DNA from: Comamonadaceae bacterium
GTDB taxonomy: Bacteria > Pseudomonadota > Gammaproteobacteria > Burkholderiales > Burkholderiaceae_C
Direction: 5' to 3'
Assembly (NCBI GenBank): GCA_004144865.1
Contig: SEAY01000045.1
Coordinates: forward strand, 12,305-76,304
Length of the DNA: 64,000 bases
Made by a program: the position numbers and the translations under genes. Under the pieces are notes generated by a model. That model had not been told where the DNA came from. It was given only the letters and a program-made list of their open reading frames with translations, and searched no databases. Below, piece after piece: positions 56,650-61,853 of the stretch. The stretch's first letter is position 1. The number at the start of each line of letters is the position of its first letter.

Positions 56650-56889
56650 TCACGCCGCCGCGAGGTATGCCAGCAGCCCGCGCAGCGTGTGCAGCTTCGG
56701 CGTGTCGGCTTCCGGGATCGCGCGGCCGGTGCGCTCGCTCAGGCCGATCACGAAGTTCATGAAGTCCATCGAGTCGAGGTCCAGCGCCACGCGCAGGTCC
56801 TCGTGGTCACGCACGGTGGCGAGGTCGGCCTCCGGGGCGATGCCGGCCAGCACCTCGGCCGCCAGGGCGCGCGCCAGCGTTTCGTTCAT
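56650..56889 (-). CDS. Stand-alone acyl carrier protein
   Basis: 79 aa, MNETLARALAAEVLAGIAPEADLATVRDHEDLRVALDLDSMDFMNFVIGLSE.... It has a DLDSMD phosphopantetheine-attachment motif at the start of helix II. Its ATG overlaps the E2 stop (ATGA). Confidence 0.8.
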   Translation of the reverse strand: MNETLARALAAEVLAGIAPEADLATVRDHEDLRVALDLDSMDFMNFVIGLSERTGRAIPEADTPKLHTLRGLLAYLAAA

Positions 56890-58070
56890 GGGCGTTTTCC
56901 TTCCAGGCGCTGCGGCTCCTGCAAGGCGGCATCCAGGGCTTCGAGAAAGCGTGCGCCGGCATGGCCGTCGCTGGCGCGGTGATCCGCAGCGAGGCTCGCT
57001 TGCACGACGGGCCGTACCGCGAGTTGGCCGCCCGTGACCCAGGGCCGCGGCGCGATGCGCCCGAAGCCGACCACGGCGAGCTGCGGCGGATAGATCACGC
57101 CTAGCACGCTGTCGGCGCCGCGCTCGCCGAGGCTCGTCACGGTGACGGTGGAATCGGCCAGCTCCGAGCTGCGCAGGCCGCCGCTGCGCGCGCGCTGCAC
57201 CACGTCGCGCAGCGTCGCCATCAGGGCCGGCAGGCTCGCCCGGTCGGCGTCGTGCACGGCGGGCACGACCAGGCCGCCGCCGCGCAGGTTCACGGCCCAG
57301 CCGACATGCACGGCGCGCGAGAGTTGCGCCGCGCCGTCGCGCCAGTAGCCGTTGAAGCCGGGCACTTCGGCCAGCGCCAGCGCCGTCGCCTTGAGCAGCA
57401 GCACCGCGGGCAACAGCCGGTCCACCGGTGCGCGGCCGGCATTGAAGTCGTCGAGCCAGCGTTGCGCCGCGCCAAAGTCGATCGCCTGCACCAGGTAGTA
57501 GTGCGGAATCTCGCGCTTGGAGCGGCTCATCGCCGCCGCGATCGCGACGCGCATCTGCGCCGGGTCCCAGTTGCGGGCCGGCGCGGTGGCGGCACGCGGC
57601 GCCTGCGCGGCGCGCTCCACGTCCGCGAGGCTGATGCCCCCCTCGGGGCCCGTGCCCGCTACGCCGGAGAGGTCGACGCCCAGCTCGGCGGCACGCTTGC
57701 GCGCTCCGGGGCTGGCCTTCCCGTGCGACATGGCGGCGGCCGGCCCCGGGGGCGCCACAGCCGTCACCCGGGTAGCGACGGGCGCGACGGGCTGGACGGG
57801 CGGCGGCGCCGCAGGCGGCGAAGCCTGCACCGCCTCTCCCTCGGCCCGCACATAGGCCAGCACCGCGTCCACCGGCAACTCGGTGCCCACCGGCACGGGA
57901 TCCACCAGCACGCCTTCCAGGAAGATCTCGACGTCGATCGCGCCCTTCTGGGTCTCCACCACCGCGACCACGTCGCCCGGCTTCACCCGCGCGCCGGCCG
58001 GCACGCACCATTGCACGAGGCGGCCCTGCTCCATGTCAGCCCCCAGCGCCGGCATCCGGAAGGCTTCCAC
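56886..58070 (-). CDS. Dihydrolipoamide acyltransferase (E2) of a 2-oxoacid/acetoin dehydrogenase complex
   Basis: Lipoyl domain (VVAVVETQKGAIDVE), E3/E1-binding domain (ASPGARKRAAELGVDLSGVAGTGPEGGISLADVE), and a catalytic domain with DHRASDG. A GTG start at 58070 lies 2 nt after the E1 beta stop; an ATG alternative is at 58055. Confidence 0.9.
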   Translation of the reverse strand: MEAFRMPALGADMEQGRLVQWCVPAGARVKPGDVVAVVETQKGAIDVEIFLEGVLVDPVPVGTELPVDAVLAYVRAEGEAVQASPPAAPPPVQPVAPVATRVTAVAPPGPAAAMSHGKASPGARKRAAELGVDLSGVAGTGPEGGISLADVERAAQAPRAATAPARNWDPAQMRVAIAAAMSRSKREIPHYYLVQAIDFGAAQRWLDDFNAGRAPVDRLLPAVLLLKATALALAEVPGFNGYWRDGAAQLSRAVHVGWAVNLRGGGLVVPAVHDADRASLPALMATLRDVVQRARSGGLRSSELADSTVTVTSLGERGADSVLGVIYPPQLAVVGFGRIAPRPWVTGGQLAVRPVVQASLAADHRASDGHAGARFLEALDAALQEPQRLEGKRP

Positions 58071-58072
58071 GG

Positions 58073-59062: not shown

Positions 59063-60069
59063 GCCGGATTCCCTTCGCGCGCATCCTGCGGCACCGTGTC
59101 CATCAGCACGTAGCGCTCCAGGTCCGCCACCGGCTCCAGCGTGCCCGCTTCCGCGAACGCGACGGCGGCGGCGAGCTCCTGTTCCACGGCGTTCCCGATC
59201 TCCGCCAGCTGCGTCTCGGTGGCCTGGTGGTTGTCCAGCATCCAGCGGCGCAGCCGTTCGAGCGGATCGCGGTCCTTCCAGGCTTGCACCTCCTCGCGCG
59301 TGCGGTAGCCCTGGGCGTCGAACATCGAGTGGGCGCGAAAGCGGTAGGTGCGGCATTCCAGGAAGAAGGGCCCCTGCCCGGAACGCACGTGCTCGACGGC
59401 GCGGGCGGCGGCGGCCTCCACCGCGATGGCCTCCATGCCGTCCACGCTTTCCGACGGCATGCGGTAGGCCTCGGCCTTGCGGTGGATCGCCGTCTGCGCT
59501 TCCGCGTCCGCCACCGGCATGCCCATGGCGTACAGGTTGTTCTCGCACACGAACAGCAGCGGGAGCTTCCAGATCGAGGCCAGGTTCATGGTCTCATGGA
59601 AGGCGCCTTCCGTGACCGCGCCTTCGCCGAAGAAGCAGGCGGTGATCGCGCCGGGGCGCAGGCGCTGGTCGGCCAGCGCGATGCCCGCCGCCACCGGCAG
59701 GCCGCCGCCCACGATCGCGTTGCCGCCGAAGAAGCGCCGCTGCACGTCGAACACATGCATGGAGCCGCCGCGCCCGCGGCAGCAGCCCTCGGCCTTGCCC
59801 AGCATCTCCGCCATCAGCCGGTCCATGGGCACGCCGCACGCGAGGGCCTGCCCATGCTCGCGGTAGGTGGCGACGACCGCGTCGCCGGCCTGCAGCGCCT
59901 CCATCACGCCCACCGCCACCGCCTCCTCGCCGTCGTAGAGGTGCAGGAAGCCGCGGATCTTGCGGTCCTGGTACAGCTCGACGCAGCGCGCCTCGAAGCG
60001 GCGGATGCGCAGCATGGCGCGATAGAGATGCTGCAGGTGCGCGCGGTCCGCGTGGAGCCGGGTGTTCAT
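59059..60069 (-). CDS. 2-oxoacid/acetoin dehydrogenase E1 component, alpha subunit (TPP-binding)
   Basis: ...[37 protein letters not shown]...[38 protein letters not shown] (TPP motif). The ATGA overlaps the neighbouring genes at both ends. Confidence 0.92.
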
Positions 60070-61853
60070 CGCTCGTCGCTCTCCAGGGTGGACAGGTCGC
60101 CCTCGGGCAAGCCCAGCTCGCGGGCCTTCAGCAGGCGGCGCATGATCTTGCCGCTGCGCGTGCGCGGCAGGCCCGGGCGGAAATCGATCTCCTTGGGCGC
60201 AACGGCGGCGCCCAGGCGCTTGCGTGCATGCCCGAGCAGTTCGCGCCGCAGCGCCTCGCCGGCCTCGAAGCCCGGCTTCAGCGCCACGAAGGCCTTCACC
60301 ACTTCGCCGACCACGGGATCGGGCTTGCCGATCACCCCGGCCTCGGCGACGGCGGGATGTTCCAGCAGCGCGCTCTCCACCTCGAAGGGGCCGATCAGGT
60401 GGCCGGCGGACTTGATCACGTCGTCGGAGCGCCCCACGAACCAGTAGTAGCCCTCCTCGTCGCGCTTGGCCAGGTCGCCCGTGAGGTACCAGCCGCCGGC
60501 GAAACACTTGCGATAGCGCTCGTCCTCGTGCAGGTAGCCGCGCATCATGGAGGGCCAAGGCACCTTCAACGCGAGCTCGCCGTCGGTCCCGGGCGTGCGG
60601 ATCTCCTCGACGCCGCCGTCCTCCGTGCGCCGCACGATCGCGGCCGCTATGCCCGGCAGCGGCTTGCCCATGGAGCCGGGCTTCACGTCCACCGCGGCGT
60701 AGTTGGCGATCATGATGCCGCCGGTCTCTGTCTGCCACCAGTTGTCATGGAAGGGATGGCCGAAAGCCTCCTGGCCCCACACCACCGCCTCGGGGTTGAG
60801 CGGCTCGCCCACGCTGGCGGCGAAGCGCAGCGCGGACAGGTCGTAGCCGCGCACCGCGCCGGCGCCCAGCTTCATCATCATGCGGATGGCGGTCGGCGCG
60901 GTGTACCAGACGGTCACGCGCTCTTGTTCCAGCACCGAGTACCAGGACTGCGCATCGAACTCCGCCTCCACGACGACGCTGGTCACGCCGTTCACCAGCG
61001 GGGCGAGGATTCCGTAGCTGGTGCCCGTCACCCACCCGGGGTCGGCGGTGCACCAGAACACGTCGCCGTCGTGCAGGTCCAGCGCATAGCGGCCGGTGAC
61101 GGCGTGGGCAAGGATGGCCTCGTGCACGTGCACGGCGCCCTTGGGGCGTCCTGTGGTGCCGCTGGTGAAGTGCAGCAGCGCGGTGCTGGCCGGGTCGGTG
61201 GGCTGGATCCGGTACTCGGGCGACGCCTCGCGCACCAGCTCGCTCCAGCGGCGCACGCCGGGGCCGGAACAGTCGCCGTCGCCCACCACGACCACGTGCC
61301 GCAGGCCGGGCAGGCGTTCGCGCAGGGCGTGCACCTTGCGCTGGTACAGCTCGGGGGTGGTCACCAGCACCCGTGCGTCGGCCACCTGCGCGCGCGTCGC
61401 GATGGGCTCCGGGCCGAAGGCGGAGAACAGCGGCGTCACGACGCAGCGCGCCTTGAGCGCGCCCAGCACCGCGATGTACAGCTCGGGCACGCGGCCCATC
61501 ATCACGAAGACGCTCTCGCCGGCTGCAACGCCCAAGCCCTCCAGCGCGTTGGCGAAACGGCTGGTCTGCTCCGCCAGTTGCGCGAAGTCGAGCTCGCGCC
61601 GCGCGCCGTCGGCGCCGATGCAGCGCAACGCCGTGGCCCCACCGCGCCCATGCAGCACATGGCGGTCGACCGCCTCGTGGGCCATGTTCAGGCCCTGCCC
61701 GCCGGGCAGGCCGTCGAGCAGCGCGCGCGCGTCATCCCAGCGGAAGGAGGCGCACGTGGCCTCGTAGTCCAGCAGGTGCGGCACGGGGCGCAGCCGCGCG
61801 GGGTCCTTGCGGATGCGCGGACGGGATTCCATCGCGACGGCGGTTGCTGGCAT
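60066..61853 (-). CDS. AMP-forming acyl-CoA synthetase (AcsA-type acetate/short-chain acyl-CoA ligase)
   Basis: 595 aa. It has the N-terminal [13 protein letters not shown]...[10 protein letters not shown] layout of AcsA-type ligases, [10 protein letters not shown] (A3), WQTETGG, YLTGDLA, and [11 protein letters not shown] (A10). Confidence 0.9.

Follow-up and report, generated by a model that had tools for sequence, protein, structure and literature searches.

We analysed a stretch of 64,000 nucleotides from a Comamonadaceae bacterium (contig SEAY01000045.1, positions 12,305 to 76,304), hereafter called the window. Its positions 56650-61853 hold a minus-strand cassette of five genes for an acetate-activating ligase, the two subunits of a pyruvate dehydrogenase (PDH)-type E1, a lipoyl-bearing E2 acyltransferase and a free-standing acyl carrier protein (ACP). 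The same genes recur in the same order in several phyla. We propose, tentatively and with somewhat less than even confidence, that the cassette works as a self-contained module for acetyl groups, which oxygen limitation would switch on and in which the ACP arm would stand in the place of coenzyme A (CoA); the proposal covers a family of related models.

Organization of the cassette

The first gene encodes an AcsA-type, AMP-forming, acetate-activating ligase of 595 aa (60066-61853; PF00501 and PF13193). It is followed on the minus strand by the genes of the thiamine-diphosphate-binding, PDH-type E1 alpha (336 aa, 59059-60069; PF00676), E1 beta (329 aa, 58073-59062; PF02779 and PF02780), E2 (394 aa, GTG start, 56886-58070; PF00364, PF02817 and PF00198) and the free-standing ACP (79 aa, 56650-56889; PF00550). 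Three junctions in the window sequence were 4-nt ATGA overlaps (60066-60069, 59059-59062 and 56886-56889). At the fourth, the TGA stop codon of E1 beta (58073-58075) was followed by CC and then by the GTG of E2 at 58070, which leaves a 2-nt gap. A preliminary description of this DNA had joined the five minus-strand genes into one unit with three overlaps and one gap, and the coordinates that we re-derived were identical. The Pfam families that it had expected, namely those given above apart from PF13193, were all matched, and the motifs that it had named (ETQKG and DHRASDG in E2, DLDSMD in the ACP) were all located in the translations.

The preliminary description had also stressed the absence of a gene for E3, the dihydrolipoamide dehydrogenase Lpd. 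No Lpd redox-disulfide motif was found in any frame of the window, and the related loci had no linked lpd gene either. Among the open reading frames (ORFs) scanned, which covered 17-64 kb of the window, there was no Lpd, nonribosomal peptide synthetase (NRPS) or polyketide synthase (PKS); the sole Pyr_redox_2 protein among them was an NDH-2 and not an Lpd. The observation therefore stands, but it is weak as evidence. Many 2-oxoacid dehydrogenase complexes borrow a housekeeping Lpd encoded elsewhere, and the E2 retains its subunit-binding domain, so that a missing E3 is not remarkable. The placement of the cassette outside an NRPS or PKS context was borne out as well, since neither was present in the scanned ORFs or in ~90 related loci.

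Conservation and spread

A one-genome-per-species scan with two peptide patterns found 257 species genomes, and 80 loci were fetched. The order ligase-E1 alpha-E1 beta-E2-ACP was kept in essentially all 80 genome loci, wherever the contig reached far enough. The overlap of the ACP gene with the E2 stop codon, to which the preliminary description had drawn attention, was found as a 4-nt overlap in 19 of 82 loci; adjacency of the two genes held in all 82, with a gap of ≤ 20 nt in 64. Clustering of all flank ORFs from 81 loci revealed neither a sixth conserved gene nor a consumer of acyl-ACP, the most frequent neighbour being present in 16/81, which indicates that the cassette is self-contained.

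A tblastn survey of 72,556 plasmids with the ACP as query yielded 33 records. The matches came from Alphaproteobacteria (Methylocystis, Leisingera, Sulfitobacter, Tropicibacter, Sinorhizobium, Azospirillum and Ciceribacter), Betaproteobacteria (Burkholderia, Paraburkholderia, Ralstonia and Cupriavidus), Gammaproteobacteria (Photobacterium), Thermodesulfobacteriota (Desulfotalea) and Actinomycetota (Streptomyces, Embleya and Rhodococcus). In all 11 ACP-bearing plasmid or chromid contexts that were inspected, from four phyla, the five genes and their order were unchanged; the NCBI annotation lists them as acsA, pdhA, E1 beta, ‘dihydrolipoamide acetyltransferase family protein’ and ‘acyl carrier protein’. 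The search centred on E2 returned 34 plasmid records with 44-60% identity to the E2 catalytic domain, separated by a clean gap from ordinary E2s of PDH and branched-chain 2-oxoacid dehydrogenase (≤ 37%). The ACP was present in 33 of these 34. The lone record without it was an orphan E2 in Sinorhizobium sojae, where E1, ligase and ACP had been lost together. The preliminary description had allowed that homologous operons might commonly lack the ACP, or that its ORF might not be coding. We found the opposite: the ACP is kept in the 33 plasmid records and in all genome loci with flank, and it is under constraint (see below), as befits the genuine partner of E2 that the same description had seen in it.

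The cassette ligases of four phyla shared 60-72% identity with the window ligase, compared with ~ 50% for the nearest structure in the PDB. Together with the plasmid locations, this cross-phylum identity points to horizontal spread of the entire cassette.

Several loci showed variations. In S. sojae plasmid pSJ05684b, the orphan E2 (L092, 7497-8651) was followed by a universal stress protein (USP) gene, with a CapA homologue nearby, and looks like a decayed cassette in a similar island. E1 alpha and E1 beta were fused into a protein of ~ 665 aa in the Roseobacteraceae Leisingera and Tropicibacter (L087, 8845-10842; L090, 4760-6757). On the plasmid of the strict anaerobe Desulfotalea psychrophila, a lipoate-protein ligase gene (L083, 10336-11346) stood after the ACP gene, which fits a need for lipoylating an imported E2. 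On the long metagenomic contig L095, a gene for a second AMP-binding enzyme (10246-12090; 614 aa, AMP-binding_C_3) overlapped the ACP stop codon and was followed by a nicotinate phosphoribosyltransferase (NaPRTase) gene, with DUF2267, PGA_cap and CBS genes nearby.

The acyl carrier protein

The ORF of the ACP is genuinely coding, and its product is a real carrier protein. The product scored 26.2 bits with PF00550 (cut-off 20.8). The third-codon-position GC content (GC3) of the gene was 0.95, and the ratio of nonsynonymous to synonymous substitution rates (dN/dS) was 0.09-0.44 in comparison with ten orthologues. The Ser of DLDSMD, the presumed phosphopantetheine attachment site, was invariant in the ACP alignments, where the motif took the form DS(M/L/F)D. 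The AlphaFold model (pLDDT 94) had the four-helix ACP fold with this Ser at the N-terminus of helix II (residues 39-53), and its TM-scores to ACPs of type II fatty-acid synthesis (FAS) and to mitochondrial ACPs were 0.7-0.85. No phosphopantetheinyl transferase (PPTase) gene is linked to the cassette, so modification of the ACP would need AcpS or an Sfp-type enzyme of the host.

By its profile scores, the ACP belongs to a large subfamily of its own. It remained under the cut-offs of every named NCBIfam ACP model, AcpP included (17-25 bits, cut-offs 65-84), and there is no curated NCBIfam model for the cassette ACP or for the E2 clade. A first search found 971 homologues; among the 120 listed, identities were 73-100% and the hosts were Variovorax, Ramlibacter, Rubrivivax and their relatives, with a 100% match in the Comamonadaceae metagenome-assembled genome to which the window belongs. 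The family comprised 605 clusters at 50% identity (E ≤ 1e-10), of which the best 150 were free-standing proteins of 55-186 aa, and more than 7,000 clusters at 90% identity (E ≤ 1e-5). A role of the ACP as lipoylation donor was also considered and appears unlikely, as the protein is far from the FAS ACP families, the hosts have their own LipB/LplA, and Desulfotalea adds LplA rather than FAS genes.

The ligase, E1 and the acyl unit

The ligase scored 898 bits with the acetate--CoA ligase model NF003313 (cut-off 729). Its best PDB match (579 bits, ~ 50% identity over the full length) was 9g79_B, whose 572 aa were deposited as ‘Acetyl-coenzyme A synthetase’; we take this chain to be Bacillus subtilis AcsA. 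In comparison with Acs of S. enterica, the ligase keeps the acyl-pocket residues V310, T311, V386 and W414, which confine that enzyme to acetate, the catalytic Lys of motif A10 (K609), and R584. The Arg of motif A8 (R526 in S. enterica, also Arg in 9g79) was replaced by Leu or Met in 8/8 cassette ligases from four phyla; in the window, the position lies in the region 60450-60470. The replacement is possibly a signature of a changed thiol partner, and we treat it as a lead rather than as evidence.

E1 alpha scored 264 bits with PF00676 and 431 bits with the PDH model TIGR03182 (PDH_E1_alph_y; cut-off 394), whereas E1 beta reached 396 bits with NF006667 (cut-off 321). The NCBI annotation calls the E1 alpha orthologues pdhA. 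With an acetate-size pocket in the ligase, both E1 subunits above PDH cut-offs and a failing AcoC model (see below), the likely substrates would be the acetyl group derived from pyruvate, and acetate; the carried unit is thus most likely acetyl, judging from these sequences. The loading of a short acyl unit onto the ACP, as first suggested in the preliminary description, stays the most economical reading and is narrowed to acetyl by the ligase pocket and the PDH-type E1, while the transfer from E2 to the ACP is a step that we infer.

It is improbable in our estimate that the substrate of E1/E2 is not pyruvate but acetoin or some other 2-oxoacid (branched-chain or 2-oxobutyrate). Acetoin cleavage would give acetyl-lipoyl and acetaldehyde, and oxidation of the latter to acetate would explain the linked acetate ligase; moreover, alcohol dehydrogenases lie beside some cassette copies, and the score of E1 alpha is only modestly above the PDH cut-off. 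Nevertheless, both E1 subunits pass PDH-specific models, the E2 reaches just 54 bits with the AcoC model NF011457 (cut-off 307), and neither an aldehyde dehydrogenase nor an acetoin regulator is conserved with the cassette.

The ligase also raises the question of which enzyme would load the ACP. If the ligase alone did so (acetate + ATP + holo-ACP → acetyl-ACP), E1/E2 would be a normal CoA-using PDH and the product would go to a housekeeping consumer, for example the priming of fatty-acid synthesis. Adenylating enzymes of the ANL family commonly pair with carrier proteins, and both the Leu/Met exchange in motif A8 and the second AMP-binding gene overlapping the ACP stop codon in L095 are in line with such a pairing. 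This arrangement nonetheless seems quite unlikely to us: the ACP gene always comes after that of E2, coupled to its stop codon, at the opposite end of the operon from the ligase, and no acetyl-ACP consumer is conserved nearby. Nor is it established that the A8 Arg decides between CoA and a carrier protein, and NRPS adenylation domains also have Arg at this position.

The E2 component

Besides a lipoyl domain with the ETQKG motif, the E2 contains a peripheral subunit-binding domain; its catalytic domain has the chloramphenicol acetyltransferase (CAT) fold with the catalytic Ser and DHRASDG. The VTSLG and DHRASDG segments aligned with the catalytic residues of Geobacillus E2p. The lipoyl Lys and the catalytic Ser and His are intact and the subunit-binding domain is present, so that the protein looks fully competent at the level of sequence, as had been stated at the outset. 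It nevertheless fell below the cut-offs of all NCBIfam E2 models, the best being TIGR01349 (187 bits, cut-off 445). Among loci of the Comamonadaceae type, E2 identity was ~ 60%, compared with ~ 80% for E1 beta and the ligase. By these scores and the identity gap described above, the cassette E2 is a distinct clade.

The lipoyl motifs of the cassette E2s were ETQKG, ETAKG, ETAKS, DTSKA and DTVKA, so that Gln, Ala, Ser or Val stands before the Lys instead of the usual Asp. The C-terminus was short and ended with ...LQxPExL (window 56886-56960; L082-L088), whereas Geobacillus E2p runs past ...DPELL. We take the additional residues of E2p to be ...LLMEA, the hydrophobic knob that presumably holds E2 trimers in the cage. 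Without the hydrophobic tail of cage-forming E2s, the cassette E2 may assemble differently, which is again a lead rather than evidence.

The intact features of E2 also suit the main rival reading, that of ordinary CoA-dependent isoenzymes: a low-oxygen PDH and an acetyl-CoA synthetase would both make acetyl-CoA, with the ACP as an accessory that takes no acyl group from E2 (structural, regulatory, or a donor to an unrelated housekeeping enzyme). The NCBI and NCBIfam names (acetate--CoA ligase, PDH E1 alpha/beta) agree with it; in E2, none of the functional elements (lipoyl Lys, subunit-binding domain, catalytic Ser and His) is missing, R584 and K609 of the ligase are conserved, and the predicted ACP resembles mitochondrial ACPs, which are structural subunits of other complexes. 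We regard this reading as rather unlikely, since it leaves unexplained why the ACP is co-inherited almost 1:1 and translationally coupled with the E2 clade in four phyla, and why E2 stays under all equivalog cut-offs while E1 passes them. Furthermore, the invariant Ser of DS(M/L/F)D would be superfluous in an ACP with a structural role only.

Regulation and genomic context

An FNR/FixK/Anr-type palindrome (no strand assigned), TTGACGTGCGTCAA, lies at 61902-61915, in the 82-bp gap between the ligase gene and the CapA/PGA_cap family gene directly upstream of it (61936-63060, minus strand; PF09587, 241 bits). The palindrome is 55 bp upstream of the ligase ATG and is the only exact TTGA-N6-TCAA in the window. 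An exact TTGA-N6-TCAA within 300 bp upstream of the ligase was present in 34 of 67 loci, the B. savannae plasmid included; the number expected from the locus-wide density is 0.015 per 330 bp. With a candidate -10 element at 61880-61875 (catgat), the centre of the box might fall at about -41.5, as is classic for class II FNR sites. A sigma-70 scan found no sigma-70 consensus promoter upstream of the ligase, as would be expected for an activator-dependent promoter. DosR-type boxes were sought upstream of the actinobacterial copies as well, and the loose GC-rich palindromes found there were unconvincing.

The cassette sits in low-oxygen/dormancy gene islands, whose flanks vary around one theme. 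In Streptomyces fungicidicus, its neighbours are five USPs, Hsp20, a nitroreductase, NaPRTase, an alcohol dehydrogenase, an AAA_33 ATPase, a P-type ATPase and DUF1876. In Rhodococcus DK17 they are PpsA, a PfkB-family kinase, an AAA_33 ATPase, a GNAT protein, an Rv2632c-like protein, a USP, and a GAF sensor kinase with its response regulator. The Rv2632c-like gene of DK17 (L088, 6745-7101; PF08962) overlaps the ligase start by 4 nt, so that the operon there begins with a dormancy-associated small protein. R. qingshengii has an erythromycin-esterase-family protein, Hsp20 and three USPs; Leisingera has PpsA, PfkB, USP, Hsp20, CBS and a Crp/Fnr regulator; S. fredii has FtsH, USP, NaPRTase, Hsp20, BON and DUF2267; Ralstonia has PpsA, a class II ribonucleotide reductase (RNR), a c-type cytochrome and AckA-Pta; B. 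savannae has Hsp20 and hyp genes. Around loci of the Comamonadaceae type we observed a PAS/HisKA_3 kinase, a phosphoribosyltransferase, an AAA_33 protein, a phosphoribosyl pyrophosphate (PRPP) synthetase, an alanine dehydrogenase, LrgA and a LOG-family protein.

DosS/R-like and Fnr-like regulators were among the neighbours. We take USP, Hsp20, PfkB and the like to be hallmarks of the mycobacterial DosR regulon, which presumably includes hspX, acg, pfkB, USPs, nrdZ, ctpF, pncB2 and Rv0574c. The set of neighbours also matches the low-oxygen locus lxa of Burkholderia cenocepacia (PMC3721108). Neither these islands nor the FNR-type box had been seen in the preliminary description, which therefore went without the main biological clue. 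From the FNR-type site and the neighbours, induction of the cassette by low oxygen is predicted, with good support at the level of sequence.

Proposed mechanism

In the simplest mechanism, which we favour, the PDH-type E1 alpha/beta would decarboxylate pyruvate and reductively acetylate the lipoyl arm of the cassette E2. From there, E2 would transfer the acetyl group to the ACP made in the same round of translation, with the phosphopantetheine thiol as acceptor in place of free CoA or in addition to it. The AcsA-type ligase would act on the ACP too, interconverting acetyl-S-ACP with acetate and ATP. In one option, it would discharge the carrier (acetyl-ACP + AMP + pyrophosphate (PPi) → acetate + ATP), which would create a CoA-independent fermentative branch from pyruvate to acetate. 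In the other, it would charge the ACP from acetate, and both enzymes would then load one carrier for a housekeeping consumer. The housekeeping E3 of the host would reoxidise the dihydrolipoyl arm. We infer the acetylation of the ACP, by E2 and/or the ligase, as well as the direction of the ligase reaction and the use of the host E3. The earlier suggestion that the ligase either activates the substrate or recycles the product, on the same acyl unit, survives as a suggestion, now with a pocket of the acetate type.

Such an ACP-based model would account for an invariant five-gene set without a conserved consumer, an ACP coupled to a divergent E2, an acetate ligase in front, and the low-oxygen context. 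CoA and the ACP arm carry the same pantetheine and hence present the same thiol, which makes lipoyl-to-ACP chemistry plausible. Moreover, NRPS condensation domains, CAT-fold relatives of E2, accept carrier-bound pantetheine, and the reaction of AMP-forming acetyl-CoA synthetases is reversible.

Several points weigh against the ACP-based model. The docking of the ACP on E2 or on the ligase has no experimental or structural backing, and the absence of ACP-E2 or ACP-ligase fusions among the best 150 family representatives gives no Rosetta-stone support. Since E2 keeps all features of CoA use, and the ligase both R584 and the complete architecture of AcsA, the two enzymes could simply work with CoA. 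The CoA site of canonical cage-forming E2 cores points into the inner cavity, where access of a 9-kDa ACP would be hindered; the cassette E2 might relax this hindrance through its shorter C-terminus. Synthesis of ATP by the ligase would require a supply of PPi. As for the context, dormancy genes were sparse in the 80 loci of the Comamonadaceae type by tblastn (USP in 3, Hsp20 in 2, ppsA in 3, AAA_33 in 8, a DosR-like regulator in 7), which leaves the FNR box as the stronger link to low oxygen there. Of the 67 loci searched for the FNR-type box, the half without an exact one showed none even with one mismatch, which suggests that control differs among lineages.

A more specific possibility, which we consider unlikely, is that, within one physical complex, the ACP serves as an indispensable shuttle reserved for acetyl groups: E2 would acetylate it from pyruvate, the ligase would run backwards on it, and ATP would be made from pyruvate without touching the CoA pool. 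The neighbouring genes for PRPP synthetase and phosphoribosyltransferase could then furnish AMP and PPi. If such a shuttle existed, oxygen-starved aerobes that do not grow would escape the inhibition by acetyl-CoA/CoA that stalls the housekeeping PDH, and both this form of substrate-level phosphorylation and this use of a carrier protein would be new.

Neighbouring genes in the window

The CapA-like gene upstream of the ligase is probably a fellow member of the low-oxygen island. PGA_cap genes were also found near the cassette in L030 and L095 and beside the orphan E2 of S. sojae L092 (48% identity); we take Rv0574c of M. tuberculosis to be a CapA/PGA_cap protein of the DosR regulon. The CapA/PGA_cap family may thus be a general component of dormancy islands. 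The gene is missing from most loci and lies outside the conserved five-gene core.

A 170-aa ORF (63073-63585, minus strand) with the N-terminal motif ILVVCYSHTGTS lies between groEL and the CapA-like gene. It had a weak flavodoxin match (NF005501, E = 3.6e-4, far under the cut-off), and its identification with the flavodoxin of the Streptomyces island was rejected because the two had no significant similarity. Just past the ACP stop codon, in the same frame, there is an ORF of 144 codons with high GC3 (orf144; 56179-56613, minus strand). At its counterpart on the identical contig L001 (3633-3980), the gene caller predicts a 115-aa gene. It had no Pfam or NCBIfam match and no counterpart in other loci, and it was dropped as a member of the unit. 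On the opposite strand, a PIN-PhoH fusion gene (54388-56070, plus strand) converges head-on with the cassette and terminates a little downstream of it. The opposite strand also has a gene for a Bcp-type peroxiredoxin (53735-54211, plus strand); neither of the two is conserved with the cassette. The gene for NDH-2, a type II NADH dehydrogenase (32345-34405, minus strand), adjoins a gene for a LuxR/NarL-family response regulator.

Comparison with known systems

As described for QncN/QncL/QncM of the quinocarcin pathway, their naphthyridinomycin (Nap) counterpart and SclQ1-4 of the scleric acid pathway, E1-like and lipoyl-E2-like proteins load an ACP (PMC6335953). In the Qnc and Scl systems, the acyl group was proposed to move from the lipoyl arm to the pantetheine of the ACP, which provides a precedent for transfer from E1/E2 to ACP (PMC6335953). 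In the cassette as in these systems, the genes of a two-part thiamine-diphosphate enzyme are clustered with those of a CAT-fold acyltransferase bearing a lipoyl group and of a small free-standing ACP. The Qnc, Nap and Scl genes, in contrast, belong to actinobacterial NRPS clusters with a PPTase, and their enzymes use ketose phosphates and yield glycolicacyl-ACP. Compared by description, neither a subunit-binding domain nor an acetate ligase is listed for Qnc and Scl (as tabulated in PMC6335953), whereas the cassette has both. The cassette further differs in its PDH-type E1, its low-oxygen/dormancy context and its presence in several phyla.

Given the shared overall parts (two-subunit thiamine enzyme, lipoyl acyltransferase and small ACP; PMC6335953), the cassette might use ketose phosphates as the source of a C2 glycolaldehyde unit and form glycolicacyl-S-ACP for a secondary metabolite. 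We judge this highly improbable, because NRPS, PKS and PPTase occur neither in the window nor in the ~90 related loci, E1 passes PDH thresholds, an acetate-specific ligase is always present, and the surroundings are those of stress and dormancy, not of biosynthesis.

The heterotetrameric-E1 PDH (PdhA/PdhB/PdhC) of Alphaproteobacteria, mitochondria and Gram-positive bacteria is similar to the cassette in its E1s, which score above the PDH cut-offs here, and in the three-domain layout of E2 with Ser and DHRxxDG. The cassette departs from it by a separate E2 clade with an atypical lipoyl motif and a short C-terminus, by the lack of a linked E3, and by the ACP and the ligase in the operon. With AcsA (9g79; NF003313), the cassette ligases share the short-form architecture, the acetate pocket and the catalytic Lys. 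Unlike AcsA, they form a tight cross-phylum group, have Leu or Met for the A8 Arg, and are always encoded by the first gene of an E1/E2/ACP operon.

AcoABC also combines E1 alpha/beta with a lipoyl E2; some organisms have no E3 linked to it, and in Bacillus it is tied to the use of acetate and acetoin. The cassette is set apart from it by the low AcoC score, by E1 subunits that pass PDH models and by the absence of aco regulators. The preliminary description had reckoned with a cluster already described as an ordinary acoABC operon; the AcoC model failed and we found no such description. More broadly, no published description of the cassette was found in the full-text literature on E1/E2/ACP, Qnc, lxa, DosR/dormancy, FixK/microoxia and acetyl-ACP, the subscription literature being outside our reach. 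Nor did this literature yield expression data for any organism that carries the cassette. The view that the system is undescribed is in keeping with this search, but the cassette is no rarity of the window, being widespread across several phyla and often plasmid-borne.

We conclude that the cassette probably belongs to a known kind of system, in which a carrier protein is coupled to a 2-oxoacid dehydrogenase, and is a five-gene version for which we found no description. 2-Oxoacid dehydrogenase complexes are CoA-dependent in the textbooks; if a widespread version does work with a carrier protein and an acetate ligase of its own, central carbon metabolism would gain a CoA-independent branch point. 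The cassette recurs, hitherto unnoticed, as a member of a cross-phylum low-oxygen/dormancy set (USPs, Hsp20, PpsA, NaPRTase and DosR/Fnr-type control), and it bears on the survival of anoxia by obligate aerobes in soil, water, nodules and chronic infection. Annotation pipelines label its genes as ordinary acsA, pdhA, pdhB, E2 and ‘acyl carrier protein’, the latter with a Gene Ontology term for fatty-acid synthesis, which is probably misleading.

The lxa locus of B. cenocepacia carries ackA and pta (PMC3721108). Its Pta-AckA branch and the cassette occur in the same type of island, with USPs, Hsp20, alcohol dehydrogenase, nitroreductase, class II RNR and Anr/Fnr-type control. Pyruvate fermentation in P. 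aeruginosa is another low-oxygen example of Pta-AckA. The two systems differ in their chemistry, acyl-phosphate in Pta-AckA and acyl-adenylate in the cassette, and Pta-AckA works without a carrier protein. By analogy, the cassette would be a CoA-independent counterpart of Pta-AckA that turns an activated acetyl group into acetate and ATP, if its ligase runs towards ATP; in that case it would also evade the inhibition exerted by a high acetyl-CoA/CoA ratio. In R. wenshanensis, the cassette and Pta-AckA are both found within one island.

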